From the NCBI GenBank assembly GCA_041662525.1, contig JBAZSF010000001.1, positions 105,383 through 169,382 of the forward strand: a stretch of 64,000 bases of DNA, read 5' to 3'. The position numbers and the translations under genes were made by a program. The DNA is from Minisyncoccota bacterium (lineage in GTDB: Bacteria > Patescibacteriota > Minisyncoccia > Phycocordibacterales > UBA9973). Of this stretch, positions 2,491-44,655 are shown piece after piece (position 1 is the first letter of the stretch; every line of letters starts with the position of its first letter). The notes beneath the pieces are model-generated. The model saw only the letters and a list, made by a program, of their open reading frames with translations. It had not been told where the DNA came from and did not search any database.

Positions 2491-3870
2491 ATGCCATTAA
2501 AATTTTACAACACTCTAACACGAGAAAAAGAAATCTTTACTCCGATTGATCAAAAAGAAGTTCGTATGTATTCCTGTGGTCCAACAGTTTACAATTATAC
2601 CCATATAGGTAATTTGCGTTCTTTCTTTTTTGCTGATCTAATACGTCGTGCTCTTCGATATGAAGGATTTAAAGTAAAGCAAATAATGAATATTACAGAT
2701 ATAGGACATCTCTCTAGTGATGCGGATTCTGGTGAAGATAAAATGACCAAAGGGCTTTTGCGCGAGGGAAAAGAATTAACTCTCGAAAATATGCGTGAGC
2801 TTGCCGAATTTTATACTGAAAGTTTTCGAGCAGATTTAAAAGCATTAAATATCGAAATACCTTCGGGAATGTATTTTGCTAGTGATTATGTAAAAGAAGA
2901 TATCGAACTAATCCAAAAATTAAAAGAAAGAGAATATGCCTATAGCACTAATGATGGTGTATATTTTGATATTTCAAAAATGCCAGACTATGGAGCGCTT
3001 TGGGGTGGTAAAAGAGATTGGAACAAAGAAGGTGCGCGGGTAAATGAAAATTCAGAGAAAAGAAATCCGGAAGATTTTGCTCTTTGGAAATTTAGCAACT
3101 CCATCGGCTTCGAATCCCCTTTTGGCAAGGGTTTCCCAGGTTGGCACATTGAATGTTCAGCTATGGGATTAAAATTTTTAGGAGAACAATTTGATATTCA
3201 CACTGGAGGGATCGATTTAGTTCCGACTCATCACACCAACGAAATAGCTCAATCAGAATGCGCAACGGGTAAAAAACCTTTTGTTAAATTTTGGATGCAC
3301 AGTGAATTTGTTGATACTGGAAATGAAAAAATGTCTAAATCAGCAAATAATTTTTTAAGATTAGATAGCTTGCTTGAAAAAAGCATAAACCCAATAACAT
3401 ATAGATTCTGGCTTTTAATGGCTAGCTACCGCACAAAGGTTAACTTTAGTTGGGAAGCACTAGAAGCATCTGAAACAGCCCTAAAACGCTTATATGGGCT
3501 ATATTTAGAGTTGGGTGATGAGCATGGGCACATACACAAAGAATACCAGAATAAATTCAAAGAATACCTGGAGGATGATCTAGATACCCCACGGGCATTG
3601 TCTTTATTGTGGGATGTTATGAAAGATAAAAACATGTCCGATGGTGATAAAAAAGCTACTATTCTTGATTTTGATAAAGTCCTCGGGCTTGGTTTTGAAA
3701 ATTTAAAAGAAGAAAAAATTCCTGAAGAAATTAAAAAGCTTGTAGATCTGCGTGAAGAAGCCCGTAATAATAAAGATTTTAAAAAATCTGATGAATTACG
3801 AGATAAAATAAATTCTCTTGGTTATGAAGTGAAAGATACTTCTGAAGGTCAAAAAGTTTCCAAGACTTAA
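2491..3870 (+). CDS. cysS: Cysteinyl-tRNA synthetase
   Basis: 'YSCGPTVYNYTHIGNLRSF' (HIGH region) and 'KMSKS' motif; 459 aa. Confidence 0.95.
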   Translation: MPLKFYNTLTREKEIFTPIDQKEVRMYSCGPTVYNYTHIGNLRSFFFADLIRRALRYEGFKVKQIMNITDIGHLSSDADSGEDKMTKGLLREGKELTLENMRELAEFYTESFRADLKALNIEIPSGMYFASDYVKEDIELIQKLKEREYAYSTNDGVYFDISKMPDYGALWGGKRDWNKEGARVNENSEKRNPEDFALWKFSNSIGFESPFGKGFPGWHIECSAMGLKFLGEQFDIHTGGIDLVPTHHTNEIAQSECATGKKPFVKFWMHSEFVDTGNEKMSKSANNFLRLDSLLEKSINPITYRFWLLMASYRTKVNFSWEALEASETALKRLYGLYLELGDEHGHIHKEYQNKFKEYLEDDLDTPRALSLLWDVMKDKNMSDGDKKATILDFDKVLGLGFENLKEEKIPEEIKKLVDLREEARNNKDFKKSDELRDKINSLGYEVKDTSEGQKVSKT

Positions 3871-4448
3871 TTTATTTTGAAAATCTTTTTACGGTAAATA
3901 CAAAAAGCTATTATTATATTTATTGCTATATTGTAAATTCCAAAAGAATAAATAGTAAAAATCCAATTCTTTATAATGAATAATCCTAAAATATTATTAA
4001 AAATGCCCGAAAAATAAACAGTAGACGTTTCGGTTTCCGGAAATTTCCAAGATTTTATAATAGTCGGAACAGCTGCCAAACCATCACTTAATATTGCAAA
4101 TAAAATTGAAATTCCAAGATTGTGAGTAAAGATATAAAAGACTAAAGCTAAAAAAGAAAGTATCCCACAAACTATGTCCAATCTATTTATTTCCCAAATA
4201 GAATTTTTCCTAAAAAGAGAAACGATTATCACTACCACAGGTCCAAACCCAGCTAAAAAAACTGGAAGTACAGAAAGACCAGCTCCGGCTTTAAGCTGAA
4301 AAAATACAGCAATAAGTGGAGCTAGTGCCCAAAGAATCCAAGAAACTAAATTCGGTTTAGTATTACCGTAAAATATATTTTTAAAATAAAAAAAGTACGC
4401 GATTAAGCTAACGATCACTCCGATATAAATAATATTTTCTGGAAGCAT
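3867..4448 (-). CDS. Hypothetical polytopic membrane protein
   Basis: 193 aa, ~6 hydrophobic segments, no recognisable motif. Confidence 0.4.
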   Translation of the reverse strand: MLPENIIYIGVIVSLIAYFFYFKNIFYGNTKPNLVSWILWALAPLIAVFFQLKAGAGLSVLPVFLAGFGPVVVIIVSLFRKNSIWEINRLDIVCGILSFLALVFYIFTHNLGISILFAILSDGLAAVPTIIKSWKFPETETSTVYFSGIFNNILGLFIIKNWIFTIYSFGIYNIAINIIIAFCIYRKKIFKIN

Positions 4449-4452
4449 TTTT

Positions 4453-5571
4453 TTAAATACCTTCTTTTTTAAGTTCTTCTATAATTTCTCTTGATTTGCG
4501 AGAAAGTTTTGATGGTAATTTGATGTTTAATTTTATTAATAAATCCCCTCTTTTGTTTTTTGCAAAAGGTACTCCTTTGCCACGCACACGTAAAATTTCA
4601 TTTATGGAAACTCCTTCTGGAATCGTTACTTCTATTTCTCCATCTAAAGTTTGGATAGGATATTTAACTCCGAGCAAGGCATCAGAAAGTTTTAAATTTA
4701 AATTCATTACTAGATCATTTCCCTCTCGTTTAAACACAGGATGCGGAGCTACATTTATTTTTATATAAAGATCTCCTGTGGTTCCTTTTGAAACTGCTTC
4801 ACCATAACCCGTCATCCGAATCATCTCACCATCACGGATGCCTGCAGGGATAGCAATAGAAACTTCTTCTTCGCGACGAAGCACTCCTTTGCCTTTGCAT
4901 TTATCACAAATTTCTTTTGGTACTTCACCTGCACCTAAACAAACTTCACAGATTTTTGTACTAGCAATATTGCCAAAAATTGTTCTTTTAGATTCACGAA
5001 TTTTCCCCTGACCATTGCAATGTTTGCAGGTTTCCATTTTAGTTCCAGCTTTCGCACCAGAGCCTCCACATGTCTGACATGTGGAAGTTTTAGTAATTAA
5101 AACTTTTCTAGTTATACCAAAAATAGAATCAGCAAAAGAAATCTGAATCTCGGTGGAAATATCTCTTCCTCGACGTGTTTCTTGTCTTCCTCCTCCCATT
5201 CCACCGCCGAAAAAATCACTAAAAATATCATTGAGATTACCCATATCAAAATCTGCCCCACCGTTTTGGAAACCTGAAAAGTCAAAACCTCCGAAACCTC
5301 CTTGCTGTTGTCCTCCACCATACCCTCCTTGTTGCCCCATATTTTCAAAACCTGATCCATACTGATCATATTTTGAGCGTTTAGTATCATCAGAAAGTAC
5401 TTGATAAGCTTCATTTGCTTGTTTAAATTTTGCTTCATTACCATCTTTTTTATCAGGATGATATTTTTGCGCCAACTTATAAAAAGCCTTCTTTATTTCT
5501 TCTTTGGAGGCAGTTTTATTTACACCTAAAATGTTATAATAGTCTTTGTTCATATGATTTTGCAAAATCAT
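4453..5571 (-). CDS. dnaJ: Chaperone DnaJ (Hsp40)
   Basis: J-domain '[32 protein letters not shown]', Gly/Phe-rich linker, four CxxCxGxG zinc-finger repeats. Only 39 nt downstream of ATPase-1 on the same strand. Confidence 0.95.
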
Positions 5572-5610: not shown

Positions 5611-7113
5611 TTATATCATAGGTTCGGCCTCTTGTGAAGTTTTAGTTTTTATTTCAGAATCATCTTCTTTACTCTCTCCTTCCTCACTTGTTTCTTTTGA
5701 TTTTCTTTTAGCTCTTCCTTCAATAATCGCTTTTTCTTCTGCACTTCGAATAATAGTAGCTTCTTCTTCAGCAATGAGTTTCGCCGCATCACCTTTTGGT
5801 ATTGAATATTTCCTACGAGACGATGCTATAACCTCCTCTCTATAAGATGGATGTGTGGGTGGTAGAATTCGTAGAGTTTCCGCAGAAAATGGATCATAGG
5901 ATTCACCATCAATAGTCATTTTAATATAAAATTCTCCAACTGCGAGATTGATCATGTCTTTCACATCAAAAAGTGGCGCAAATTCTGGTTTCATTTTAAC
6001 TGCATCTTCACCACCAATACGAAAAGTAATAACACTTCCACAATTACCAAGCACGGCTTGATGAATTTTAGGTAAAATTTGCCCGACATACTGATGCGCC
6101 ATGGTTAAATTCAGCGCATATTTTCTCGCCTCTGATAAAATATTTTCAAAAGTCTGAGTAACTACATTTTGAAACTCATCTACGTATAAATAAAAGTCTG
6201 TACGATCTTTTTCTGGGATAGCGGCACGCTCCATGCCGGCTTGTTTTATTTTTGTCAAAAACATGGAACCAAGAAATGAAGAATTCTCTTCCCCCAGACG
6301 GCCCTTGGAAAGATTAATTAAAATAATTTTTTGTTCATTCATCAATTTACTAATATCAATCTTATTTTGCTTTTGTCCAAAAATATTTCGAAGCAATGGA
6401 TCAGATAAAAATTGCCCAAGCTTATTTACAAGCGGAATGATCGCGTCAGTGTCGAATTTCTCAGACCAATCAGCGAATTCAATAGCGAAGAATCTTTTAA
6501 CCATGTCATCTGTAATATATTCCACCACCTTCTGTCTGTAATTTCTGTCGGTCAACATTGAGATCATTCCTCGCATCGTAGCGTGCGGATAGTCGAGCAG
6601 GGCCAAACAAGTAAAACGAAAAACGTGTTCTAGGCGTGGTGTCCAGTTTGCTCCGAATTGTTTTTGAAAAACTTCGATCAATCCCTGTGTTAATTGAAAT
6701 TTAAATAATGGATCAACATTTGCTAAAGGATTGAAAGAAGCTGGGAAATCTAAATCTGTAGGGTCGATAATGCAAACATCTTCGATACGTTCTTTTGGGA
6801 TATAATCAAGAATTGCGTTTATTTCATCTCCGTGCGGATCAATCAAACAGATACCATGACCATAGGTAATATCTTGACGCATAAAAAGCTCAAGTAATTT
6901 ACTTTTTCCAACACCGGACTTTCCAATAATATAAAGATGCCTTCGGCGATCTACTCTTTTAATACCAAAAACAAATTTCTTTTCTTCTAATGAAGCGACA
7001 TAATTTGTTCGCCCAATAAAAGAAGCGTCCTCAGGGTTAACTTTACCAAAAACTGGTAATTCTGGTGGTGGTGGTCCGTATTTTATTATTTGCACTCGAT
7101 TCAGCTTGGACAT
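5611..7113 (-). CDS. Soluble TrwB/TraD/VirD4-like (type IV coupling protein family) P-loop ATPase, paralog 1, no TM anchor
   Basis: Walker A 'IGKSGVGKS', then 'LIDPHGDE...IIDPTD' (compare remembered TrwB 'GATGTGKS..VIVDPNGD..IILNPYD'), Walker B 'DFYLYVDEFQNV', 'TMAHQYVGQ'. No N-terminal hydrophobic helices; acidic Ser/Glu-rich C-terminal tail. Confidence 0.65.
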   Translation of the reverse strand: MSKLNRVQIIKYGPPPPELPVFGKVNPEDASFIGRTNYVASLEEKKFVFGIKRVDRRRHLYIIGKSGVGKSKLLELFMRQDITYGHGICLIDPHGDEINAILDYIPKERIEDVCIIDPTDLDFPASFNPLANVDPLFKFQLTQGLIEVFQKQFGANWTPRLEHVFRFTCLALLDYPHATMRGMISMLTDRNYRQKVVEYITDDMVKRFFAIEFADWSEKFDTDAIIPLVNKLGQFLSDPLLRNIFGQKQNKIDISKLMNEQKIILINLSKGRLGEENSSFLGSMFLTKIKQAGMERAAIPEKDRTDFYLYVDEFQNVVTQTFENILSEARKYALNLTMAHQYVGQILPKIHQAVLGNCGSVITFRIGGEDAVKMKPEFAPLFDVKDMINLAVGEFYIKMTIDGESYDPFSAETLRILPPTHPSYREEVIASSRRKYSIPKGDAAKLIAEEEATIIRSAEEKAIIEGRAKRKSKETSEEGESKEDDSEIKTKTSQEAEPMI

Positions 7114-7137
7114 ATATTAGTTATTTTAACATAAAAT

Positions 7138-8889
7138 CTAGTAAACCTCTTGCTGATAACATTTTTCGCAATACACTATTTCAGGGCGATCGGGAGCATA
7201 GCTCGTCTCAAACTCTATCTCGCACTTACTTGCTCCATGAGAATGATTTGGTTTAGTACACATACAAGACCTATGCCAGAGTTTCATAGGATTACGCATT
7301 TTCAACCTATTTTCATGACGACACAAAAAACATAACCTAGGTAAAGGTACTCCAAGTTTTCGATATAAATTTAATTCATCTATAGTAATTTTATAAGCCC
7401 CTCTACAATAATTACTGAATTTTCCTTTATTTCCACATCCAATAATTTCTTTTGTAATAGAATTTTTAACATCATCTAAATTATCAGGAAAATTTTTTGA
7501 TTCAATTGTTGTTTTATATTCATTTCCTGATCTTTCACGCCATCGATATCCCATTTTAAGTGCCTGTTCCTTCTCTATGGGAAAATAATCTTGTGCCTGA
7601 GTTTCATTGTAGCAAAAAGTAGAAAGTTCACTGGGAAAAAATTCTCCATATTTGTATATAATTCCTCTCTTGTCCACATAGGGTACTTCATTCATTTGTT
7701 CTTTGATTTTTGGAATTAATTTTTCATATTCTTCTTTAAAGTATTGTTTGTTTAAAATACAATATTTTTTATTTCGCACACCAATACAACCAAATAAATT
7801 TGAAGACCCGTGGCAATTAAAAGAATACTCAATATCATTTGAACCATAGATCACACTGCCAAAAAGATTGCGAAAACCGCCTATTCCTGTATCAAATACC
7901 TCATAAAGCATTTCGCCTTCCCCTACTCCAGGCCCAGAATCATAAGCATCTTTAAGACTTTTTACTGACCAATGTGAATATTTTGAATCTTCAATTTGTC
8001 CATTTGCATCAAAACAAATTTTGCAATTTTTTGTACCTTCTAAGTTATCACCTGTTGAATTTACCACCTTTATTTGAACAGCAAAGCGATGCAATGAATT
8101 AAGATATAATTCTTTAAACTTATTTTTAAGTTCTAAAATAGTTTTATAATCTTTAAGATTATATTCAGCTAATTTTCTGTGATATTCTTCCCTAGAAAGC
8201 TGTTCATTCCACATGCAATATGATTTATTGCGCAAATTAGTACAACCAAAACAATCTGTGCATCCTACGCAATCATAAAGAAAATATGAATCTACGCAAC
8301 TTTTACAATTCAGAGAATAAAGTAAATGATAACTGTCCGAACAAATTACATCTTCATAACAAAGCTCAGAACGATTGACAACATATAAATCTGCAGAATC
8401 TTTTGTCCCGGTAATTCTATTAGAATACAAAGTTCTTTCTATTCTCCATGAACCAGAACACATATAGCAGTCCTTGCTAGCTTCTGCGATATTACAATAA
8501 TCGCTATTTGTTGCATTTACATTTGAAAGGGCTTGGAGGGGAATATTATTTCTTAAATTTTTCCACTGTTCAAAAAAAGGTTTAGAAAAATCATATTCTT
8601 TGCCATAAGAAAGCGGATCCCAGCCATCTCCCCACCAAGCATCAGCACAATACACAGTAAGTTTTTCTTCTGGAGGTAAAAAAGAAATAAGCATTTCGTC
8701 ATGACCTGGCGCATCACATTTTCTTTTGAACAAAGACATCTCGTTACGCCAAGTTATACGTCTGATAGTTCTGCATTCCGGACAAAAAGTCGGAGGTGGA
8801 ACTTTCATCTTTTTATAAAAGTTAAAATCCTCTAGTTCGATGACAAAGTCTTGTTTACAATTTTGGCAATTTTTAGTTTCAGAATTCAT
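7138..8889 (-). CDS. Cysteine-rich (~33 Cys) internally duplicated zinc-ribbon protein, paralog 1 of a 3-member family of unknown function
   Basis: 583 aa. N-terminal ribbon 'CQNCKQDF..FNFYKKMKVPPPTFCPECR' and homologous C-terminal module 'LNLYRKLGVPLPRLCFLCR'. Two central Cys clusters each ending 'CFGC..LRNK.YC..N.Q.S.EEY'. Start is 1 nt after the ATPase-2 stop. Confidence 0.6.
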   Translation of the reverse strand: MNSETKNCQNCKQDFVIELEDFNFYKKMKVPPPTFCPECRTIRRITWRNEMSLFKRKCDAPGHDEMLISFLPPEEKLTVYCADAWWGDGWDPLSYGKEYDFSKPFFEQWKNLRNNIPLQALSNVNATNSDYCNIAEASKDCYMCSGSWRIERTLYSNRITGTKDSADLYVVNRSELCYEDVICSDSYHLLYSLNCKSCVDSYFLYDCVGCTDCFGCTNLRNKSYCMWNEQLSREEYHRKLAEYNLKDYKTILELKNKFKELYLNSLHRFAVQIKVVNSTGDNLEGTKNCKICFDANGQIEDSKYSHWSVKSLKDAYDSGPGVGEGEMLYEVFDTGIGGFRNLFGSVIYGSNDIEYSFNCHGSSNLFGCIGVRNKKYCILNKQYFKEEYEKLIPKIKEQMNEVPYVDKRGIIYKYGEFFPSELSTFCYNETQAQDYFPIEKEQALKMGYRWRERSGNEYKTTIESKNFPDNLDDVKNSITKEIIGCGNKGKFSNYCRGAYKITIDELNLYRKLGVPLPRLCFLCRHENRLKMRNPMKLWHRSCMCTKPNHSHGASKCEIEFETSYAPDRPEIVYCEKCYQQEVY

Positions 8890-8890
8890 G

Positions 8891-10894
8891 CTATTCCAAA
8901 ATTTTTCTTAAAACATCTTCGGGAACTTCCTTTGTTGCTGGTTTTTGAGGTATAGGAGTTGCCGAAGGTGAAGCCGTAGGTCCTGAGTTTGTCGAAGGAG
9001 TGATTTTTTCCTCAATCAAATCTTTTAATTTATTCATATCTTCTGCTGTGGCTGCACGATCTACGCCTATTGGACGAGCAGGTTTTTTTACTTCTTGCAT
9101 TTTATTTTTTAAAGAATCGAGCGAAATAGGAGTTGGGGTTGAAATAGGTGCTGGGGTAGATTTAGCTTCTACCACTACTTTATTTAAAACATCCTTTAAT
9201 GCTGAGGTATCCCTATTTATTGGATAAGTTGACTTGGGCCTGACTGGATAAGTAGGTGTAGGTTTAATTGGGGCTGGTTTGGTAAATACTTTTTTAAAAG
9301 TCTTAATTATTCCAGCAGGTTTTACAGGGGCGGTAGTTTGTTGAAATTCGATACCTAAATCAGCTAGTGGTTTATAAAATTTAGATTCATCATATTTGAT
9401 TTGATCTTGTCCCCTTTTTTCCACCTTTACTTCTCCGGATTTTATTTTTGCAATACATTCTTTACAATAAGCTGCTCGGCCCGGCTCAGGTTTAAAGGGC
9501 ACTGTTTTTTCTAGTTTACAAAGCGAACAAATTACTGGAAATTTTTCTATATTTCCATTGGTAGTATATGTATCACTACCTAATGACATTCCGCTCCATT
9601 CATTAATTTCTCGCTCCACTACCTCCCTAGACCTACAATAAATGGCACGGGAAGATTGTATTACTGCTTCTTCTATTTTTTTATCCCCAGACTTTACCAT
9701 GGGTGGTAAAGTCTTAGCGGAGAATGGACGGGATGTCACACCATCAATCATTAACTTTAAATAAATTTTATAGTTCGGCAAATTAACAATATCTCCCGGA
9801 GTAAATTCTGGATCAAATTCTTTTTCCAAAAAGTCTGCATCGTCCGAACCAACTCTAAAAACTATCATTGTACCTACGTTACCAAAGACAGCATCACGCA
9901 CCGCAGAGCTTTTATCCACCACGAGCTGTGCAGTATACTGATGCGCCACAGTTAGATTTAGTCTGTACTTTCTAGCTTCAGACAAAATACCAGCAAAAGC
10001 ATCTGTCACAAAGTTTTGGAATTCGTCCACATAGAGATAAAAATCTTTTCGATGTTCTTCGGGAATACGCACGCGTTCCATGGCGGCAAGTTGAATCTTA
10101 GTAATGATCATCCCACCCAAAAGCCCAGAATTGTCTTCACCGATGCGTCCTTTGGAAACGTTCACTAGAAATATCTTCCCATCATTCATAATATCAAAAA
10201 TATTAATAGTACTTTTAGATTGACCGACTACGTTTCGAATAATAGAAGTAGAAAGAAATTGTCCGACTTTATTTTGAATCGGAGCGATAGCTTCATTGCG
10301 AAATTTGTCTTGCCAAGCTTCATATTCATGCACCCAAAAAGCTTTGATCACGGGATCTTTTAAATTAGCAATTATTTTTTGACGATAATCCTTGTCCACC
10401 AGCATTCTAGGGATTCCCAAAAGCGTCGTCCCGGGAGTATCTAGCAATGCTAAAATACAATTATTCAAAATGTATTCCATTCGAGCACTCCAAGCATTCG
10501 CCCAGATTTTAGTAAAAATACCCATGAGTCCAGACGCCACTAAATGTTTATATTGCGGATCAATTAATTCTAAAACATTAAAACCAATATGGTAGTCCAC
10601 ATCTGCGGGATTAAAATAAACTACGTCTTTCATGCGCTCCGGCGGAATAGCAGACAAAACTCCTTCGACGAGTTCCCCGTGCGGATCAACCACACAAACA
10701 CCTTCACCGTTCTGAATATTCTGAATGATCATATTAAACATCAATACAGATTTACCCGAACCAGATTTTCCAAGAATATAAACATGCTGACGTCTGTCCT
10801 TGCGCTTGATACCAAAGAGCTGATTTTTATCACGAAAAGTTGTGAGCCCAAGATAAGTAATTTCTCTATTTATAGGTATTTCTGGAAGTTCCAT
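8891..10894 (-). CDS. Soluble TrwB/VirD4-like P-loop ATPase, paralog 2, with C-terminal CxxC..CxxC zinc ribbon and Pro/Thr-rich tail
   Basis: 'ILGKSGSGKS', 'VVDPHGE', 'FYLYVDEFQNFV', 'TVAHQY'. C-terminal 'CSLCKLEKTVPFKPEPGRAAYCKECI' followed by a P/T/S-rich low-complexity region (~230 aa). Confidence 0.65.
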   Translation of the reverse strand: MELPEIPINREITYLGLTTFRDKNQLFGIKRKDRRQHVYILGKSGSGKSVLMFNMIIQNIQNGEGVCVVDPHGELVEGVLSAIPPERMKDVVYFNPADVDYHIGFNVLELIDPQYKHLVASGLMGIFTKIWANAWSARMEYILNNCILALLDTPGTTLLGIPRMLVDKDYRQKIIANLKDPVIKAFWVHEYEAWQDKFRNEAIAPIQNKVGQFLSTSIIRNVVGQSKSTINIFDIMNDGKIFLVNVSKGRIGEDNSGLLGGMIITKIQLAAMERVRIPEEHRKDFYLYVDEFQNFVTDAFAGILSEARKYRLNLTVAHQYTAQLVVDKSSAVRDAVFGNVGTMIVFRVGSDDADFLEKEFDPEFTPGDIVNLPNYKIYLKLMIDGVTSRPFSAKTLPPMVKSGDKKIEEAVIQSSRAIYCRSREVVEREINEWSGMSLGSDTYTTNGNIEKFPVICSLCKLEKTVPFKPEPGRAAYCKECIAKIKSGEVKVEKRGQDQIKYDESKFYKPLADLGIEFQQTTAPVKPAGIIKTFKKVFTKPAPIKPTPTYPVRPKSTYPINRDTSALKDVLNKVVVEAKSTPAPISTPTPISLDSLKNKMQEVKKPARPIGVDRAATAEDMNKLKDLIEEKITPSTNSGPTASPSATPIPQKPATKEVPEDVLRKILE

Positions 10895-10928
10895 ATAGTA
10901 TATATTTTACAACAAAATCACAAAAACA

Positions 10929-10950
10929 AAAAGCCCCTTATGGGGCTTTT
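10929..10950. terminator. Rho-independent terminator downstream of dnaK (minus-strand sense)
   Basis: Hairpin aaagcccc-ttat-ggggcttt; on the minus strand it is followed by a T-run. Confidence 0.6.
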
Positions 10951-11043
10951 CAAAAAATTTAGAAAATAATTTTTTTGAACGGTCTGGCTGGGGTGGGACC
11001 CAGAGAACCGAGGACCTGAGAAAAAATTGATTTTCTAAATTTT

Positions 11044-12948
11044 TTACACCTTTGGTTCTTCGCCTTCGGGACCTTTTTCTTTAAATTCTGCGTCATGAAC
11101 TTCGGCTGGTTGTTCTTCAGGGGCACTAGCGGGAGGAGTTTCTGCTCCAGCTTTCGCCATCGCTTCCCCTATTTTTGACATTTCGGCAGAAAGCTCTTCG
11201 GTGGCTTTTTTAATTCCCTCACCATCAGTGCCATCTTTAACACCTCGCAAAGCAGTTATCTTTGCATTTACTTCATCTTTTAATTCTACAGGGATTTTTG
11301 CTTCATTATCCTTAAGAGCTTTTTCAGCAGTATAAATAATCATTTCTGCTGTATTTTTTACTTCTGCGTTCTCTTTTTTCTTCTTATCTTCCTCTGCGTG
11401 AAGCTCTGCATCAGCTTGCATTTTTTTGATATCTTCTTCTTTGAGTCCAGAGCTTGCTTCAATTTTAATTGATTGAGTTTTACCTGAGGCTTTATCTTTT
11501 GCGGAAACATTTAAGATTCCATTCACATCCACATCAAAAGCAACTTCAATCTGAGGCATCCCGCGAGGTGCTGGTGGAACTCCATCTAAAATAAATCGGC
11601 CGAGAGATTTATTGTCGGACGCCATAGGACGTTCTCCTTGCACGATGTGTATTTCAACAGAAGTCTGATTGTCTGCAGCGGTAGAAAATGTTTGAGACTT
11701 GCTTGATGGGATAGTGGTATTTCTTTCAATCAATTTTGTAGCCACTCCTCCTAAGGTTTCAATACCTAAAGATAGCGGTATTACATCAAGCAGTAAAACA
11801 TCTCGCACATCACCTTGTAACACGCCTGCCTGAACAGCTGCACCGAGTGCTACTACTTCGTCAGGATTAATGGACATATTTGGAGCTTTGCCGAAAAGTT
11901 CTTGCACTGCAGAAACTATCGCTGGCATTCTAGTCTGACCACCCACCATAATAATTTCATTAATTTCATTAATTTTAAATGGAGATGCGTCTAAAGCTCT
12001 TTTGGTAATCTTGATAGAAAGATCAATATACTCTTTGGCTAAAGATTCCAACATCGCTCGAGACATTTTTAGCAATAAATGTTTCGGCCCAGAAGCATCC
12101 GAAGTAATAAACGGAATATTTATTTCAGTTTCTGTCGTAGTGGAAAGTTCATGTTTAGCTTTTTCTGCAGCTTCTTTTAATCTTTGATGCGCTAGAGGGT
12201 CTTTGATCACATCAATACCAGACTCTTTTTTATACTCTTCAGCGATCCAAGAAATTATTTTTCTATCAATATCTCCTCCACCCATATGACTATCCCCATC
12301 AGTAGATTTAACTTCTATCACATCATCGCCTATTTCCAGCACAGACACGTCAAAGGTTCCCCCACCGAAATCGTAGACAACAATCTTTTCATTTTTCTTT
12401 TTATTGAATCCATAAGCAAGCGCAGCAGCAGTCGGCTCATTAATAATACGCTTCACATCCAGACCAGCAATTGCTCCTGCATCTTTGGTAGCTTTTCTTT
12501 GCGCATCATTAAAATATGCTGGTACGGTTATTATCGCTTCAGTAATTTTTTCTCCCAATTTCGCCTCAACATCAGCTTTTATTTTTTGCAAAGTCATTGC
12601 GGAAATTTCTTCTGGTCGATAAAATTTATCTGACATTTTTATTTTTACACCACCTCCTTCTCCTGCTTCAATTTTAAAAGATGCTGTCTCTCGATCTTTT
12701 TGCACTTCCGGATCATCAAATCGATGCCCCATATAACGCTTGATTTCAGCAATGGTATTTTCTGGATTTGTGACCGCTTGTCTTTTTGCAAGAAGACCGA
12801 CAATACGATCTCCATTTTTTGCAGTTGCCACGACAGAAGGTGTCGTACGATTACCTTCCACATTTTCTACTATCTTTGGTGCGCCACCTTCAATGATAGC
12901 GACTGCTGAATTTGTTGTACCTAAATCTATACCTATTATTTTTGACAT
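11044..12948 (-). CDS. dnaK: Chaperone DnaK (Hsp70)
   Basis: '[13 protein letters not shown]', '[10 protein letters not shown]', 634 aa, acidic C-terminus. Confidence 0.97.
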
Positions 12949-13047
12949 ATATTTTATAAGGTTAATTTATAATTTTTAATAATTTTACTAATATTTCGCG
13001 ACCACTAAAAACTTGTATAAACAGAGTATATATGATAGGATGCTTGC

Positions 13048-13563
13048 ATGTCAAGTAATAAAGATTATTCTAATAAAATACTTAAAATTTTAGGTAGAAA
13101 AAATGCTGTTTCTTTGCCAGAACTAAAAGAAAAAATTACTGGAGAAAAATATGCAATCACACGCTGTCTAAAAAATCTTAAAAATTCTGGATTGATAGAA
13201 CAAATACCCTCCCCACAAAATAATTATGCTCGCCTGACAAAACTTGGAAGAAAAAAAATGCATAGTTTAGAGTTGGATAGTGACACAACTCTTGTAAACA
13301 CTTCTTGGGATGGATTTTGGAGAATTATTCTACTTGATCTGCCTGAAAACAGAAAAAATGAACGGGAGTCTCTACGTTACCTTCTTAAAAAGGCTGGCTT
13401 CGTATGTCTAAAAAATTCCGCTTGGATATCCCCATTCCCCTTTGAACATTTATTTACGAATATTAAAAAAGACCTAGGACTTACCACTGAGATAATGATT
13501 ATCGTCACCGAAAATATAGATGAGGAAAGCAAAAAAGTTTTATTTGAAACTTTTGGAAAATAA
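13048..13563 (+). CDS. Short PaaX-like winged-helix transcriptional regulator
   Basis: N-terminal wHTH; C-terminal 'WDGFWRIILLDLPENRKNERESLRYLLKKAGFVCLKNSAWISP' matches the PaaX C-domain pattern 'WDG.W.lv.fd.pe..r..R..lr..L...Gf..l...vw..P'. Confidence 0.5.
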   Translation: MSSNKDYSNKILKILGRKNAVSLPELKEKITGEKYAITRCLKNLKNSGLIEQIPSPQNNYARLTKLGRKKMHSLELDSDTTLVNTSWDGFWRIILLDLPENRKNERESLRYLLKKAGFVCLKNSAWISPFPFEHLFTNIKKDLGLTTEIMIIVTENIDEESKKVLFETFGK

Positions 13564-13626
13564 TTAATAAACTTCCTGCTGATAACCCCGAACGAAAGCA
13601 AAGCTTCGTACAGGGTAGGCATTTTT

Positions 13627-15351
13627 CTAATAAATTTCTTGTTGATAACAACGTTCACAGTAAACTATTTCTGGTCGATCTGGCGCGTAACTAGTCTCAA
13701 ATTCTACTTCACATTTTTGTGTGCCATGTATGTGATTTTTTTTATCACACATACATTGCCTACGAAAAAAAAGAGGTAAATTTCGTAAGGTTAAACGTTC
13801 ATAATGCCGACAATTAATGCAAAAACGCGGTAATGGAAGATTCATTCTTTTTAAAAAATCAAGTTCTGATTTGATTATGCGAAAAGCCCCGGTGCATTCG
13901 TGTTCACAAGACTCATCGTGTGCACATTGAATAGCCTGATTAAGTATGTCATCACTTACATCATTGATATTATCTAAGATGTCTTTATTTTTTAAAGTAA
14001 ATTTATAATTTTGTTTTGTAGTTTCGTACCACGAAAACCCTTTCCTCTTTGCATCTTCTTTACCCAATGGAAAAAATTCGTAAGCAGTAGTTGCTTTGTA
14101 TGGAAAAAAAGAAAATTCACTTGGGAAAAATTCTCCATATTCTTTTGCTTGTTTCATATGTTCAATTATTTTGGGCACTAATTTTACATATTCTTCTTTT
14201 GTGTACTGTTTATTAAAAATACAATATTGCTTATTTCGAAGCGAAACACATCCAAAAAGATCTGATGAATTACTGCAAAAAACACAATAAGTTAAATTTT
14301 TTACATTTGTATAACAATAAGCACTAAATTTTATATTTGATCCCCCATTTCCAACAATAAGACTTTCGTAAATAAGTTCTACATTTTCTCCATAATTTGA
14401 ATAATCATAGCAATCCTTTACAGGTCCCATTAAAATATTTTGGACAAATTTGCTATCTTCCACCATCCTTACACGAAAACAATATTTTGCATTCTTAGAC
14501 CCATAAACATAATCACCAGAAACATTCACATTTTGACGATCGTGAATATATTTTTGCGGGTAATCAAGCCAATGTTTATATACCTCATCTTTTAATACTC
14601 TTAAGGCTTTATTAGAACCTAAATTTAATTCTTTAATATTTTTTAAATAATCTTCTCTAGAATATTGTTTATTAAAAATGCAATATGATTTATTGCGAAG
14701 ATTAATTGAACCAAAACAACTATTGCATCCAATACAATCTTTACACAAAATCATTTCCTGACAACTCTCACAATCAACAGAAAAAAATGTTTTATAACAA
14801 GCTGTAGTATTAATATTTCCATAACTCAATTCACATTGATTTGTCATATGGCTATCAAAGCATTGTTTAGAACCCTTATCCCAAATTAAATATGCAGAAT
14901 CTTCCGCATAAGAGACTCCTCCTCGAACCAAATAACAATTTTTTACATCATGCACATTAGTGCAATAGTAACAATTCACTAAATTATACATAGAATGCGC
15001 AGGTAGTGGCACCCTTAAAAGTAAACTTTTAAACTGTTCGAAAAATGTTTTTGTAAAATCAAAATCACGAGCATACTCAAGTGGATTCCAGGCATCAGAA
15101 ATCCAATAATCTCGATCATATATTTTATAAGGACTTTCTTCGGGAAAAAGTGAAAAAATTTCTTTTCCACCAAGAGCTTCCTTTTTCTTAAATAAATGCC
15201 AATCATTACGCCAGGCCATTCTTCGCTGCATCCTGCATTCCGGACAAAAAGTAGGCGGAGGTACTTTTATCTTTTCATAAAAATTAAAATCCTCCGGCTC
15301 TATGACAAATTCTTTCTTACAATTTTGGCAATTTTTTGTTTCAGATTTCAT
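13627..15351 (-). CDS. Cysteine-rich internally duplicated zinc-ribbon protein, paralog 2
   Basis: 574 aa. First ~45 and last ~30 residues are almost identical to paralog 1 ('MKSETKNCQNCKKEFVIEPEDFNFYEKIKVPPPTFCPECR' and 'KCEVEFETSYAPDRPEIVYCERCYQQEIY'); middle region divergent. Confidence 0.6.
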   Translation of the reverse strand: MKSETKNCQNCKKEFVIEPEDFNFYEKIKVPPPTFCPECRMQRRMAWRNDWHLFKKKEALGGKEIFSLFPEESPYKIYDRDYWISDAWNPLEYARDFDFTKTFFEQFKSLLLRVPLPAHSMYNLVNCYYCTNVHDVKNCYLVRGGVSYAEDSAYLIWDKGSKQCFDSHMTNQCELSYGNINTTACYKTFFSVDCESCQEMILCKDCIGCNSCFGSINLRNKSYCIFNKQYSREDYLKNIKELNLGSNKALRVLKDEVYKHWLDYPQKYIHDRQNVNVSGDYVYGSKNAKYCFRVRMVEDSKFVQNILMGPVKDCYDYSNYGENVELIYESLIVGNGGSNIKFSAYCYTNVKNLTYCVFCSNSSDLFGCVSLRNKQYCIFNKQYTKEEYVKLVPKIIEHMKQAKEYGEFFPSEFSFFPYKATTAYEFFPLGKEDAKRKGFSWYETTKQNYKFTLKNKDILDNINDVSDDILNQAIQCAHDESCEHECTGAFRIIKSELDFLKRMNLPLPRFCINCRHYERLTLRNLPLFFRRQCMCDKKNHIHGTQKCEVEFETSYAPDRPEIVYCERCYQQEIY

Positions 15352-15361
15352 AATCTTACCT

Positions 15362-15406
15362 TTTCCCCTTCTTCCCCTTCACCAGGTGAAGGGGAAGAAG
15401 GGGAAA
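15362..15406. repeat. 45-bp perfect palindrome (22-bp arms, 1-nt centre), GC-rich, between Cys-rich paralogs 3 and 2
   Basis: tttccccttcttccccttcacc a ggtgaaggggaagaaggggaaa, read directly; the two arms are exact reverse complements. Confidence 0.9.
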
Positions 15407-15408
15407 CT

Positions 15409-17097
15409 TTAATTTATATTTTGCTTGTAACATTCTTCACAGGCGATTTTTTGATATCCCCATTCTGGTAAATAATACGCTTCAATATCTTTTTTACAAT
15501 AAAAACATTTATATGAATACGCTTGCAAAACAGTTAAATATTTTAAACTATTTTTTATTCTCACATCAAAATGATAACGCGGGAGCGGTATATTATTTTC
15601 TTTATAAAAAGAAAGTTCATTTTGGGCAATATTAAAACGCCAACCTGTTTCTGGGCATAAAAGTGCCTGAGTGATAATAGTATCCGAAACATCTTTCACA
15701 TCATCAGGAAGTTCGTTTGTAGGCATCCCATCTGTCTGACCTTCTGTTGTATCTTCCCAATAACCACCAATCTTTAGCATATCTTCTTTTTTTGTGTTTG
15801 GAAAATAAAAAAACCCAGTAGAGAAATTAAATGGTCCAAGACTCATGGAATAAGGCAAAAATTTTCCATACTCACCTCTTTTTTTCATATCAGAAATAAT
15901 CTCATCCCGTAATTTTTCATATTCCTCTTTAGAATACTGCTTATTTAAAATACAATATTTCTTTTTCCTCAAACCCACACAACCAAAACAATATTCACAC
16001 TCAATACATAAATCTAAATATTCGGAATATCTAGAAGAAGACCAGCTAGAATATTTGAGAGCATAACCGCTGGGTTGGCAAGAACTACAATTCCCTGATA
16101 TTTCTAAATCCTGACAGCCGGTAATATCAATACAAGATTCCAATCCTCTACCCCTAATACAATTAGAACAATCTTCGGATTCTGAAATCGTAAAACAATT
16201 ATGACAATTTTTACAATCCAATAAATAATCTCCAAAAGAATTATGAACTTTTAAATTAAAATTAGGTCTATGCACTACTTCTTCTTGAACTATTTCTTCA
16301 AAATGTTTTTTATGCTTTTGGATAGAATCATAGGAACCAAGTTGAAATGATTTGATTTTTTTATCATATTCTTCTTTGGAGTATTGAACATTTTCTATGC
16401 AAAAAGATTTATTGCGAAGATTCCAGCACATAAAACAATCCTGACAATTCCGACAGTCATATAAAAAGTAAGAATTTATGCAATCTCGAGAATGTTTAGA
16501 GTAAAAAAGTTTATAAGAATGATGGCACTCAGAAGAGTCAAAACATTTTTCACTATTGTAACAAACTATCACATCAATAGAATTTTTTACATTGATGTTT
16601 CTATATGAATAAAATAAGTTTTCACAATCCACCATAGAACGTGAAAGATAACTATCTTTACAACTCCAAACATCATCGCACCAATCACATCCTGTGCTTT
16701 TACTACCATCTTGATGCGGACGAGGCACTTTTTCTTGGAGATTTTTTAATTGCTCAAAAAATGTTTTTTTCTCATCGTAATCTTCTCCATAATTCATTGC
16801 ATCCCATTTATCGCTGTACCATTCAGAAAGAGTGTAGATTGGATATCTGCTATTCTCCGGCAAAACTGTAATCAAACTTTCTCCAGAAAGATCAGATTTA
16901 CCTTTGCGAAATTTTCCAAATACCCAAAAAGACAAGTGCAATTTTACCCGACAGAAAAAACAAAGTGTCGGCAACTCTATATCAACTTTTTTATATAAAG
17001 ATAATTCTCCTTCTGTAATTAAAAAATTATTTCCACAATGCTCACAAATATTAGTTTGTTGGTTCTTTGTATTCATATACATTGACCCTCGCGGCAC
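15409..17097 (-). CDS. Cysteine-rich internally duplicated zinc-ribbon protein, paralog 3 (most divergent; start codon ambiguous, overlaps grpE 3' end)
   Basis: 562 aa. N-terminal 'CEHCGNNFLITEGELSLYKKVDIELPTLCFFCR', central 'CRNCQDCFMCWNLRNKSFC', 'CFGCVGLRKKKYCILNKQYSKEEY', C-terminal 'CFYCKK...CEECYKQ'. Alternative starts: MYMNT at 17082 or MNT at 17076. Confidence 0.55.
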   Translation of the reverse strand: MPRGSMYMNTKNQQTNICEHCGNNFLITEGELSLYKKVDIELPTLCFFCRVKLHLSFWVFGKFRKGKSDLSGESLITVLPENSRYPIYTLSEWYSDKWDAMNYGEDYDEKKTFFEQLKNLQEKVPRPHQDGSKSTGCDWCDDVWSCKDSYLSRSMVDCENLFYSYRNINVKNSIDVIVCYNSEKCFDSSECHHSYKLFYSKHSRDCINSYFLYDCRNCQDCFMCWNLRNKSFCIENVQYSKEEYDKKIKSFQLGSYDSIQKHKKHFEEIVQEEVVHRPNFNLKVHNSFGDYLLDCKNCHNCFTISESEDCSNCIRGRGLESCIDITGCQDLEISGNCSSCQPSGYALKYSSWSSSRYSEYLDLCIECEYCFGCVGLRKKKYCILNKQYSKEEYEKLRDEIISDMKKRGEYGKFLPYSMSLGPFNFSTGFFYFPNTKKEDMLKIGGYWEDTTEGQTDGMPTNELPDDVKDVSDTIITQALLCPETGWRFNIAQNELSFYKENNIPLPRYHFDVRIKNSLKYLTVLQAYSYKCFYCKKDIEAYYLPEWGYQKIACEECYKQNIN

Positions 17098-17671
17098 GGA
17101 TTACGCGTTCGCCTAGTTTATAGCCTTTTTGAATCACATTTGCGATAGTATGATCTTGTTCTTTTTTATTTGTTTCTACCATATCAATAGACTGATGAAT
17201 ATTGGGATCAAAACTCTCCCCCGTCTCCCCTATTGTTTTTACTCCGTATTCTTCAAAAATGGTATTCATCTGAGCGTAAATATATTCCACGCCTTTTCGC
17301 CAGTTTTCATCCACCTTTTCCCAAGCTTCCTTGTTCGCAAAAGCCATATTAAAACTATCAATCACAGAAAGAAAACGAGTTAAAATTCTCTCTCGCATCG
17401 CTTCTGAAAAAAGTGCTTTTCTATCTTCTTCCTGCTTACGATAATTAACAAAATCTGCTCGCTCTTTCTGCCAGCCAGTTAAATATTCTTCTTTTTCGGC
17501 TTTGCACACTTTTAGATCAGCTCTAAATTTCTTTAAAGTTTTCTTTAAATCTTCTTCTCCGTCTTCGTTAAATTCAAACTCTAAAACCTCAGACGAGTCA
17601 ACAGACTCGTCCCGAGCAGCCTCGAGGGAATCTTTTATTTCGGTATCAATTTTCTTTTCTTCATCTGACAT
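17051..17671 (-). CDS. grpE: Nucleotide exchange factor GrpE
   Basis: 206 aa, acidic N-terminus, coiled-coil 'FRADLKVCKAEKEEYLTGWQKERADFVNYRKQ', C-terminal beta domain 'ANVIQKGYKLGERVIRAARV'. Confidence 0.85.
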   Translation of the reverse strand: MSDEEKKIDTEIKDSLEAARDESVDSSEVLEFEFNEDGEEDLKKTLKKFRADLKVCKAEKEEYLTGWQKERADFVNYRKQEEDRKALFSEAMRERILTRFLSVIDSFNMAFANKEAWEKVDENWRKGVEYIYAQMNTIFEEYGVKTIGETGESFDPNIHQSIDMVETNKKEQDHTIANVIQKGYKLGERVIRAARVNVYEYKEPTN

Positions 17672-36649: not shown

Positions 36650-36709
36650 AGCAAAGCAGTTTGCTCGCTCCTTTACACAAAACAAAAATCCCTTTCGGGA
36701 TTTGTTTTG

Positions 36710-36792
36710 TGCGCCGGGAAGGATTCGAACCTTCGTAGCCCGAAGGCGAGGGATTTACAGTCCCTTGTATTTGACCGCTCTACCACCGACGC
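36710..36792 (-). tRNA. tRNA-Tyr (anticodon GTA), class II with long variable arm, CCA not encoded
   Basis: Manual fold: acceptor GCGUCGG/CCGGCGC, D-arm GGTAGAGCGG, anticodon loop CUGUAAA, long variable arm, T-loop GGTTCGAATCC. Confidence 0.85.
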
Positions 36793-44043: not shown

Positions 44044-44115
44044 GGCCTGGTAGCCAAGTGGTAAGGCATTCCTCTGCAAAAGGAATATACGGCGGTTCGA
44101 TTCCGCCCCAGGCCT
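44044..44115 (+). tRNA. tRNA-Cys (GCA)
   Basis: Manual fold: acceptor GGCCUGG/CCAGGCC, D-loop AGCCAAGUGGUAAGGC, anticodon loop CUGCAAA, T-loop GGTTCGATTCC. Confidence 0.85.
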
Positions 44116-44237
44116 CAAAAAATTAAATAGTTTTAATTTTTTGCTGATTTGCTGAAAGCAAAATTGCCGATGTGAGACAAAGTCGAACAGGCAATAAGAA
44201 AAGAAGTATGTTAAAATATTTTAGGATAAATAAAATT

Positions 44238-44319
44238 GCCCGAGTGGCGGAACTGGTATACGCGCACGACTTAAAATCGTGTCTCGTAAGGGATGTGGGT
44301 TCGATTCCCACCTCGGGCA
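44238..44319 (+). tRNA. tRNA-Leu (TAA), class II
   Basis: Acceptor GCCCGAG/CUCGGGC, anticodon loop CUUAAAA, long variable arm, T-loop GGTTCGATTCC. Confidence 0.85.
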
Positions 44320-44353
44320 CAATGCGTTAGGCAAGGCCTAACGCAAAAGTTTT

Positions 44354-44426
44354 GCGCCCTTAGCTCAGCTGGTAGAGCAGATCCCTCTTAAGGATAAGGT
44401 CGAAGGTTCGATCCCTTCAGGGCGCA
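44354..44426 (+). tRNA. tRNA-Lys (CTT)
   Basis: Acceptor GCGCCCU/AGGGCGC, D-arm TAGCTCAGCTGGTAGAGC, anticodon loop CUCUUAA, T-loop GGTTCGATCCC. Confidence 0.8.
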
Positions 44427-44453
44427 CAAAGTGCAAGGGCACTTTGTGCGAGC

Positions 44454-44506
44454 CGGAGGCTGACGAGCCGAGGCGGGGTCGCGCAAAAATTCAGCAGAAT
44501 TTTATG
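44454..44506. repeat. Inverted copy of the ~50-bp repeat core also found at 27933-27981
   Basis: cggaggctgacgagccg...gcaaaaattcagcagaattttatg is the reverse complement of cataattttctgctgaaaatttgc...cggctcgtcagcctccg. Confidence 0.7.
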
Positions 44507-44529
44507 TGTGACCACAAGTTTATAAATTT

Positions 44530-44611
44530 GCCGGGATGGCGGAATTGGTATACGCGCTAGTCTTAGGAACTAGTGGGGCAACCCTTGGGAGTTCGAGTCT
44601 CCCTCCCGGCA
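44530..44611 (+). tRNA. tRNA-Leu (TAG), class II
   Basis: Acceptor GCCGGGA/UCCCGGC, anticodon loop CUUAGGA, long variable arm, T-loop GGTTCGAGTCC. Confidence 0.85.
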
Positions 44612-44655
44612 CAAAATATATGGGTATTAGGCACACTTGACATTTATATTGATAA

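Follow-up and report, generated by a model that had tools for sequence, protein, structure and literature searches.

VirD4-like ATPases and a cysteine-rich protein family in the grpE-dnaK-dnaJ cluster of Nomurabacteria-like Paceibacteria

Genes and proteins of the locus

The chaperone genes grpE, dnaK and dnaJ of a Minisyncoccota bacterium lie on a stretch of 64,000 nucleotides (the window; positions 105,383 to 169,382 of contig JBAZSF010000001.1, assembly GCA_041662525.1), where they are interleaved with five further genes. Two of these encode ATPases, ATP1 and ATP2, and three encode large cysteine-rich (Cys-rich) proteins, Cys1, Cys2 and Cys3. The best homologues come from metagenome-assembled genomes of Candidatus Nomurabacteria, Paceibacterota and Minisyncoccia. 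Comparison of many loci revealed that ATP1, ATP2 and Cys-rich genes have remained neighbours through at least four gene orders. The linkage of ATPases to Cys-rich genes is general, and their embedding in an Hsp70 cluster is clade-specific.

The locus had been described before from its letters alone. That original prediction gave the gene order, the strands and a divergent PaaX-like regulator, all of which the list of open reading frames (ORFs) and Pfam confirmed. Its gaps of 1 nt (ATP2/Cys1), 24 nt (Cys1/ATP1) and 39 nt (ATP1/dnaJ), are exact, and grpE does overlap Cys3. To these may be added a sixth conserved gene, h193, 4 nt beyond dnaJ. Coordinates (Table 1) are positions in the window, with ORFs taken from a six-frame list and families from a Pfam scan.

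Table 1. Features of the chaperone cluster, followed by other features of the window mentioned in the text
Feature	Position	Strand	Remarks
grpE	17051-17671	minus	Pfam GrpE 1.7e-38; DnaK nucleotide-exchange factor; downstream of rpsI
Cys3	15409-17097 (ORF)	minus	Cys-rich paralogue; from GTG 17097, 562 aa, 36 Cys
45-bp palindrome	15362-15406		perfect, 22-nt arms; between Cys3 and Cys2
Cys2	13627-15351	minus	Cys-rich paralogue, 574 aa, 34 Cys
PaaX_M/MarR-type winged-helix regulator	13048-13563	plus	Pfam PaaX_M 1.1e-19; divergent from dnaK
dnaK promoter match	13054-13025		TTGACA-18-TATACT
dnaK (Hsp70)	11044-12948	minus	Pfam HSP70 4e-239
Intrinsic terminator	10927-10952	minus	GC stem and U-tract; between dnaK and ATP2
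ATP2	8891-10894	minus	667 aa; TrwB_AAD_bind 3.5e-10 and zf_Tbcl_2
ATP2 zinc finger, predicted	9446-9544		aa 451-483
ATP2 tail motif	8894-8932	minus	KEVPEDVLRKILE-COOH
Cys1	7138-8889	minus	Cys-rich paralogue, 583 aa, 33 Cys; no Pfam match
ATP1	5611-7113	minus	500 aa; DUF87, T4SS-DNA_transf, TrwB_AAD_bind
ATP1 tail motif	5614-5637	minus	SQEAEPMI
Promoter-like match (rejected)	5638-5610		just before dnaJ
dnaJ	4453-5571	minus	Pfam; J domain, CXXCXGXG zinc domain, C-terminal domain
h193	3867-4448	minus	193-aa multi-pass membrane protein; 3' of dnaJ
ClpB-type Hsp100	36847-39579	minus	910 aa
tRNA-Tyr	36709-36792		immediately downstream of Hsp100
Promoter-like site	~39700-39670		upstream of Hsp100
Four tRNA genes	44044-44612	plus	Cys-GCA, Leu-TAA, Lys-CTT, Leu-TAG

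The paralogues ATP1 and ATP2, which are 45% identical over 429 residues, have sub-threshold to moderate matches in Pfam and NCBIfam to TrwB_AAD_bind, T4SS-DNA_transf, TraG-D_C, DUF87/HerA, SXT_TraD and CD1115-type VirD4. They have the RecA-like P-loop fold of VirB4, TrwB, HerA and FtsK, and their FtsK/HerA-type nucleotide-binding domain carries Walker A and B motifs (GKSGVGKS and YVDEF in ATP1) together with the inserted all-alpha domain of type IV coupling proteins (T4CPs). Among their nearest structural relatives are TrwB, HerA, FtsK and DptH, and the best structural match is VirB4. In an alignment of ATP1, ATP2 and a third paralogue, ATP3, both Walker motifs are invariant along with about 100 further columns. 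A transmembrane segment was not found in either protein, the maximum 19-residue hydropathy being 0.98 for ATP1 and 1.13 for ATP2. On these features of their sequences, ATP1 and ATP2 are assigned to the VirB4/VirD4/HerA branch of the FtsK-HerA superfamily as catalytically intact, soluble members.

Outside the motor domain, residues 1-55 of ATP1 are hydrophilic and predicted to be disordered, as is its C-terminal linker. ATP2, with an ATPase domain at residues 1-430, has a CxxC-x17-CxxC finger that scores 34.3 bits against PF23477 (cut-off 27) and 37.3 bits against TIGR04272 (cut-off 36), and a long Pro/Thr/Lys-rich linker that is variable between orthologues. ATP1 orthologues end in (S/G)(Q/G)EAEPMI-COOH and ATP2 orthologues in KEVPEDVLRKILE-COOH, both motifs being conserved behind linkers that are free to vary in length and sequence. 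A conserved tail after a variable linker is the pattern of docking motifs such as TraD-TraM, and by analogy the two tail peptides look like tail-docking motifs.

The phage family phrog_5156, whose label is function unknown, matches the ATPase domain (ATP1, E 1e-52; ATP2, E 1e-61) far more strongly than do the VirD4 or TraD profiles. With ATP2 as the query, tblastn gave 25-28% identity to proteins of the large Bacillus phages G (gp156; JN638751 91999-93111), CP-51 and JL, and Shanette also has a homologue. These distant relatives are uninformative on the function of the ATPases. ATP3, of about 920 residues with an N-terminal DUF8128/PF26449 domain, was found in related Nomurabacteria/Paceibacteria genomes by a homology search with the 917-aa ATPase of locus L064 (8553-11306); a further example is at 8001-10769 of L164-L166. 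It is conserved at 78-80% in Nomurabacteria and lies in the order secY-adk-map-ATP3-ndk at the end of a ribosomal spc-type cluster. No further paralogue, ATP3 included, was found in the window by tblastn with ATP1 and ATP2. One Paceibacteria contig (L166, 1224-2637) carries an apparent diversity-generating retroelement, made up of a reverse transcriptase gene (RVT_1) and a bAvd-like accessory gene, just upstream of the ribosomal protein cluster.

Cys1, Cys2 and Cys3 are mutual paralogues (32-44% identity) with 33-36 cysteines each, about 6% of residues, and all three lack both a signal peptide and a transmembrane segment. They belong to a large family of the Paceibacteria, in which orthologues are 60-88% identical. 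A word-indexed search gave more than 7,270 matches, every one labelled 'hypothetical' and none with a Pfam domain. By an exhaustive profile search the family comprises 4,635 clusters at 50% identity with E ≤ 1e-3, or 2,067 with E ≤ 1e-30; the best 150 matches listed are mostly of 545-600 residues and aligned over nearly their full length. The original prediction had recognised neither the ATPases nor the Cys-rich proteins as standard components of a chaperone operon, and this assessment holds: when a well-characterised Cys-rich family was sought, Pfam, NCBIfam, PADLOC and, by sequence, the PDB yielded no relative. In PHROGs, Cys1 is without a match and Cys2 (E 0.0097) and Cys3 (E 1.5e-6) weakly match phrogs of unknown function. 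Cys2 also has a weak Pfam match to zf_Tbcl at residues 5-44.

Structure prediction had been proposed as a check. An AlphaFold2 (AF2) model of Cys1 is confident overall (predicted local distance difference test, pLDDT, 81; predicted template modelling score, pTM, 0.83), with pLDDT falling to about 60 in the solenoid, and comparison of the model with PDB structures found no relative. In the model, compact modules resembling zinc ribbons or treble clefs occupy both ends, and the middle would be formed by two beta-solenoid blocks with a 12-residue period and CxxC ladders, each block being followed by a repeated motif, LRNKxYCIxNxQYSxEEY, and a helix. PF13451 (zf_Tbcl) recognises the N-terminal domain of 20 out of 21 diverse family members (best E 3.3e-6), the domain of Cys1 itself scoring 22.1 bits, slightly under the 24-bit cut-off; weak Zn_ribbon_8-type matches are seen in 13 of the 21. 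In a set of 144 diverse members with a median pairwise identity of 38%, conservation is 90% or higher at the terminal Cys ligands and at certain aromatic, Asp, Asn and Arg positions, and many of the ladder cysteines differ between paralogues. The zinc modules are very basic. From these sequences, both the terminal modules and the ATP2 finger are predicted to bind zinc.

Conservation and transcription of the neighbourhood

The synteny survey suggested in the original prediction had a divided outcome. The embedding among chaperone genes is kept in about 35 species; in other clades the cluster stands beside murG, Nramp or CorA without chaperones. The first result comes from 79 loci of GTDB species-representative genomes, picked by similarity to Cys1, onto which all the window proteins were mapped. 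About 35 species-level genomes of Nomurabacteria type share the order PaaX< dnaK-ATP2-[Cys-rich]n-ATP1-dnaJ-[Cys-rich]0-2-h193-cysS<. ATP2 follows dnaK directly in 22 loci and after one Cys-rich gene in five more, which accounts for 27 of 27. ATP1 is directly 5' of dnaJ in 31 of 33 loci, and 29 of these 31 have 8-135 nt between the two genes. From none to six Cys-rich genes, most often two, stand between ATP2 and ATP1. In 24 of 28 loci dnaK has a PaaX-like regulator upstream, and in about 20 of 28 it is succeeded by a terminator-like hairpin; h193 sits 3' of dnaJ in 21 loci, and in a subset of the genomes a Cys3-type gene overlaps or abuts grpE. Median identities to the window proteins are 87% for DnaK, 85.5% for ATP1, 79% for DnaJ, 71% for ATP2, 70% for GrpE, 67% for both the PaaX-like protein and h193, and 64% for CysS, so that ATP1 is conserved at close to the level of DnaK. 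The nesting is fixed in one clade, where ATP1 abuts dnaJ, and the genes of the neighbourhood are native, strongly conserved and under strong selection. Five loci (L014, L015, L017, L022 and L046) have a much shorter traceable dnaJ frame (226-316 aa) with a different C-terminal half (…GDLYIKI…), which could mean a truncated J-protein, an alternative one, a frameshift or a problem of assembly.

The second result comes from 80 metagenome loci retrieved with a sister-clade ATP1 orthologue (from L025), a query blind to chaperones and to Cys-rich genes. Four gene orders were seen. One is that of the window. The others are CorA< ... ATP2-murG-ATP1-Cys-Cys; Nramp< ATP1-(Cys3-type)-...-ATP2; and dnaK-x-dnaJ-secD-secF-sigma-x-x-ATP1-Cys-Cys-pepA-Cys-Cys, in which dnaK and dnaJ are still only about 6 kb from ATP1. 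Of the ATP1 loci, 21 extend 5 kb or more in both directions; within 5 kb of ATP1, a Cys-rich gene is present in 16 of these, ATP2 in 14, dnaJ in 5 and dnaK in 4. In a small control (three loci, two of them near-identical, representing two contexts), no Cys-rich gene was present within 8 kb of ATP3. Cys3-like genes of 65-72% identity directly follow ATP1 in L096, L100, L103, L113 and L120. The Cys3 orthogroup comes after grpE in the window clade and after ATP1 in the Nramp-type loci, a second hint that the gene sets have swapped neighbours. The existence of chaperone-free clusters points to ATP1, ATP2 and the Cys-rich paralogues as the better-founded system, rather than one centred on the chaperones.

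Metal-ion transporters (Nramp, CorA and TerC) are encoded divergently beside ATP1 or a Cys-rich gene in three clades. Nramp is present in 21 ATP1 loci, mostly divergent from ATP1 and immediately upstream of it (L096 8570-9898 and 20 other loci); the remaining positions are L025 72-983, L044 9023-9934 and L001 8952-9878. This adjacency, which amounts to just three independent events, is suggestive of a link to metal handling.

With respect to transcription, the best promoter match of the region is the sigma-70-like site before dnaK (11 of 12 positions). Since dnaK has its own promoter and its own terminator, it is probably monocistronic. The terminator after dnaK and the 45-bp palindrome of the original prediction are both real. 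The statement that this terminator is the only one was too strong, because the palindrome after Cys3 forms a very stable RNA hairpin (-41 kcal/mol, z = -7.4), though without a U-tract on the coding strand. The palindrome is the only such element in the window and is probably a 3'-end, stabiliser or attenuator hairpin.

No terminator was found between ATP2, Cys1, ATP1, dnaJ and h193, and from this arrangement dnaJ is probably co-transcribed with ATP2, Cys1 and ATP1, as had been proposed. For ATP1 and dnaJ this is made plausible by their short spacing in 29 of 31 genomes. A promoter-like sequence with an extended -10 just before dnaJ (11 of 12 positions) was considered as a separate promoter and rejected: it consists of the codons for the ATP1 tail SQEAEPMI together with the stop, and genomes differ at its third codon positions, the conservation being at the level of the protein. 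Co-transcription of ATP1 with dnaJ is therefore kept as the most parsimonious reading. The same transcript may extend to h193, or h193 may be part of the module; its hydropathy maximum is 2.54, and it has no family match in Pfam or NCBIfam.

The proposal that grpE is co-transcribed with Cys3 is likewise plausible in view of their overlap. The probable start of Cys3, judged from the GAGG ahead of it, is ATG 17082 rather than GTG 17097, which leaves an overlap of 32 nt with the 3' end of grpE. The overlap is also present in L004 and L048, and translational coupling of Cys3 with grpE is plausible from this layout. Control by CIRCE and HrcA was rejected, as no CIRCE element was found in the window with up to 3 mismatches allowed. 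For this reason the divergent PaaX_M/MarR-type protein is a candidate regulator of dnaK or of the heat-shock response. Small regulators of this type recur in such genomes, for example at 4551-5084 of L164.

The region as a whole is core chromosome. The genes rpsD-rpoA-rplQ-rplM-rpsI are upstream of grpE and cysS is downstream of the cluster, with alaS, typA, infB, gyrA, murD, secA and a gene for a ClpB-type Hsp100 further along the window. The idea that the ATPases substitute for ClpB was rejected on account of that gene. The Hsp100 gene (ClpB/ClpC-type) is about 20 kb from the dnaK cluster and immediately upstream of tRNA-Tyr, and it is preceded by a strong TTGACA promoter-like site flanked by a CATATAC/GTATATG inverted repeat. 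Cumulative GC skew flattens at about 42-48 kb, where four tRNA genes are located.

Possible roles of the module

The explanation favoured here, for which belief and doubt are about equally balanced, begins with a vertically inherited neighbourhood of housekeeping type, in which a lineage-specific cytoplasmic module would be nested in the grpE/dnaK/dnaJ cluster of Nomurabacteria-like Paceibacteria. The module would consist of ATP1, ATP2 and a variable number of Cys-rich paralogues of about 575 residues. ATP1 and ATP2 may assemble as hexameric ring motors, to which the tail peptides EAEPMI-COOH and KEVPEDVLRKILE-COOH and the ATP2 zinc finger would dock partners. The Cys-rich proteins would be adaptors or substrates of these motors, to be remodelled, loaded with metal or translocated. 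In the window clade the module would be co-expressed with DnaJ and GrpE, and Hsp70 may help Cys-rich proteins that depend on metal and are hard to fold. Alternatively, the Cys-rich proteins may themselves be redox- or zinc-switched holdases that feed DnaK, like Ruc and Hsp33 (see below); these precedents make a link to proteostasis plausible. More specific, and unlikely, is the proposal that exapted coupling ATPases form a cytoplasmic, Hsp70-linked protein-remodelling hexamer or heterohexamer unique to Paceibacteria, which would recruit Cys-rich proteins through the tails and the finger and would unfold them, load them with metal or hand them over together with DnaJ, DnaK and GrpE. If true, this would add a new class of partner to those known for chaperones and give a first function to thousands of orphan T4CP homologues of the candidate phyla radiation (CPR).

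Several observations weigh against the favoured explanation. The chaperone link is limited to one clade in which the flanking genes, rpsI at the grpE end and h193 and cysS at the dnaJ end, are also syntenic, and dnaK carries its own terminator. The Cys-rich partner is not always present: in L126, L019 and L032, of the same clade, the cluster dnaK-ATP2-ATP1-dnaJ is devoid of Cys-rich genes, and the ATP1 loci L134, L104 and L157 have no Cys-rich gene within 10 kb. Cys-rich genes are so numerous (up to nine in a 22-kb locus, L068) that chance should produce some of the adjacency. Because the loci were found through their similarity to Cys1 or ATP1, they form a non-random sample of genomes, and the beta-solenoid part of the Cys1 model is of low confidence. 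The original prediction had argued from the embedding to functional coupling with Hsp70. That argument is weak, given the restriction to one clade with syntenic flanks, the insulation of dnaK in about 20 of 28 loci and the chaperone-free clusters elsewhere.

It is possible, if on the unlikely side, that the neighbourhood is simply inherited without functional coupling, as a set of independent housekeeping genes in a slowly rearranging core region where Cys-rich genes have duplicated in tandem. In favour of this are the synteny of the whole block from rpsI to cysS within the clade, the insulated dnaK, the lack of a chaperone link in other clades and the placing of all three ATPase paralogues in housekeeping operons, to which may be added Cys-rich arrays with no chaperone or ATPase nearby (two copies beside ribonucleotide reductase in L001, seven tandem copies in L063). 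However, ATP1, ATP2 and Cys-rich genes are adjacent through several gene orders and flanks, the usual mark of functional linkage; the distance from ATP1 to dnaJ stays at 8-135 nt although the block has indels elsewhere; and grpE and Cys3 overlap. An origin of the five genes as a mobile or selfish insertion, or as a defence island, exploiting heat-shock promoters was among the options first raised, and is effectively refuted. Weak PADLOC matches to mad8 and HerA (HerA E 1e-5 to 1e-9), the phrog_5156 match and the Bacillus phage homologues might have suggested it, but the PADLOC scores are far below family level, and the GC content, the GC content of third codon positions (GC3) and the codon usage of the five genes are those of the housekeeping genes of the window. 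The borders of the region have no integrase, att-like repeat or tRNA, the Cys-rich family is without a match in IMG/VR, and in about 35 species the position is fixed and vertically inherited, ATP1 equalling DnaK in conservation.

Two further alternatives take their lead from the ATPase superfamily. If ATP1 and ATP2 were true T4CPs serving a distant type IV secretion system (T4SS), the Cys-rich proteins would be secreted substrates or effectors that DnaK, DnaJ and GrpE keep competent for export. The T4CP-like fold with its Pfam and NCBIfam matches, C-terminal tails that resemble the docking tails of TraD-type proteins, an expanded paralogue family of variable copy number such as is typical of effectors, and a conserved membrane protein (h193) 3' of dnaJ are consistent with this, as are the modelled Cys ladders: Cys-laddered beta-helices of the type of the Tenebrio antifreeze protein (TmAFP) are usually extracellular. 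Yet both ATPases are without an N-terminal membrane anchor, the only VirB4-sized products among ORFs of at least 150 aa at 17-64 kb of the window are ClpB and GyrA, and the Cys-rich orthologues are conserved at 60-88% rather than diversifying, with zinc fingers of a cytoplasmic type. In addition, the passages on VirD4-type proteins in PMC12102498 place only 148 of 5,713 CPR homologues near virB4 and report that in Southlakia the homologue is non-essential while T4SS genes are essential. A secretion role is therefore very unlikely. A role in nucleic-acid handling is quite unlikely as well. ATP1 and ATP2 would then be DNA or RNA translocases, and the Cys-rich proteins zinc-finger binders or beta-solenoids mimicking DNA, perhaps in the uptake or processing of DNA, activities on which CPR bacteria depend. 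The structural relatives TrwB, HerA, FtsK and DptH, a DNA phosphorothioation-dependent restriction protein, act on DNA; the ATP2 finger and the very basic zinc modules would suit such a task; and beta-solenoids such as pentapeptide-repeat proteins can mimic DNA. Against these stand the absence of any nuclease, recombinase or competence gene from the neighbourhoods examined and the best structural match, VirB4, which is no DNA motor.

The nested module of ATP1, ATP2 and Cys-rich proteins bears on a larger question. The CPR, or Patescibacteria, make up a large share of bacterial diversity and have tiny genomes, and most of their lineage-specific genes are without a known role. In such genomes the investment is considerable: up to nine Cys-rich genes of about 1.7 kb in one 22-kb locus and two ATPases, with ATP3 encoded elsewhere. 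The orphan VirD4-like ATPases of the CPR gain a first reproducible genomic context, composed of a partner family, tail motifs and chaperone or translation operons. A large zinc/cysteine family, so far uncharacterised and without a relative among PDB structures, is defined. Exaptation of a conjugation-type motor becomes testable, with proteostasis, metal handling and nucleic-acid handling as the leading candidates for its role.

Comparison with known systems

A description of this neighbourhood or of the Cys-rich family was not found in the literature; the 'Knotted Solenoid' paper deals with Brevundimonas and has no connection with it. The pairing of the ATPases, their tail motifs, their association with a Cys/zinc beta-solenoid family and the nesting in an Hsp70 cluster are undescribed in the searchable literature. 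No known gene module has this composition; the ATPase superfamily itself is well known.

The likeness of ATP1 and ATP2 to the T4CPs (TrwB, VirD4, TraD, DotL and Cagbeta) consists in the FtsK/HerA-type domain and its all-alpha insertion. Unlike T4CPs, they have no N-terminal transmembrane anchor, they are a conserved pair of paralogues (a triple with ATP3) inside housekeeping operons, and relaxase and T4SS genes are absent from the window and from the loci annotated in detail. ATP2 has its zinc finger in addition, and identity to TrwB is only about 15%. The 5,713 VirD4-type homologues just mentioned come from 2,918 Patescibacteria genomes, about two per genome, and the orphans among them are said to be possibly 'exapted for other functions', which is left as a possibility (PMC12102498). 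ATP1 and ATP2 are almost certainly the same proteins as these orphans. The relevant passages of that paper do not deal with gene context, a Cys-rich partner, a link to dnaK or dnaJ, or tail motifs, and the words 'dnaK' and 'chaperone' are absent from its main text.

Compared with VirB4, DptH (DndH) and HerA, ATP1 appears from its model to have neither a HAS-barrel nor the VirB4 N-terminal domain, its first 55 residues being disordered. Nuclease or Sir2 partners, as in the HerA-NurA and HerA-Sir2 modules, were not found in ATP1/ATP2 neighbourhoods. Defence-type HerA is also a poor match (17 bits for the NCBIfam model HerA_antiphage, against a cut-off of 800), and unlike defence genes ATP1 and ATP2 are universal and vertically inherited, not patchy.

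Among beta-solenoids, the Tenebrio antifreeze protein (1ezg), the ryegrass ice-binding protein (3ult), CsgA and the left-handed beta-helix acyltransferases gave scores with the Cys1 model that are those of a generic fold. The Cys-rich proteins differ from these in lacking signal peptides and ice-binding or acyltransferase motifs, and in being flanked by zinc fingers.

Nearer in gene context are two redox-switched, zinc-dependent holdases, of a type in which thiol oxidation sets the zinc free and thereby turns on the holdase. Hsp33 is a Cys4-zinc holdase that works with DnaK, DnaJ and GrpE. Ruc (Rv0991c), a redox-switched holdase with a zinc ribbon, is encoded within dnaK/dnaJ/grpE/clpB/hrcA loci in many phyla (PMC7448276). 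The locus described here resembles these in having genes for Cys/zinc proteins inside the dnaK locus, and in the weak Zn_ribbon_8-type matches; the likeness is an analogy of gene context and zinc modules. Ruc has about 100 residues, with one zinc ribbon and a disordered tail, whereas the Cys-rich proteins have about 575 residues, up to 36 cysteines, modelled beta-solenoid blocks and many paralogues.

Finally, the canonical hrcA-grpE-dnaK-dnaJ operon with its CIRCE element shares with this locus the three chaperone genes, their relative order and their common strand. In the Nomurabacteria-like cluster they are split by the five extra genes and the divergent regulator, with dnaK probably transcribed alone, and a PaaX/MarR-type regulator occupies the place where hrcA might be expected.

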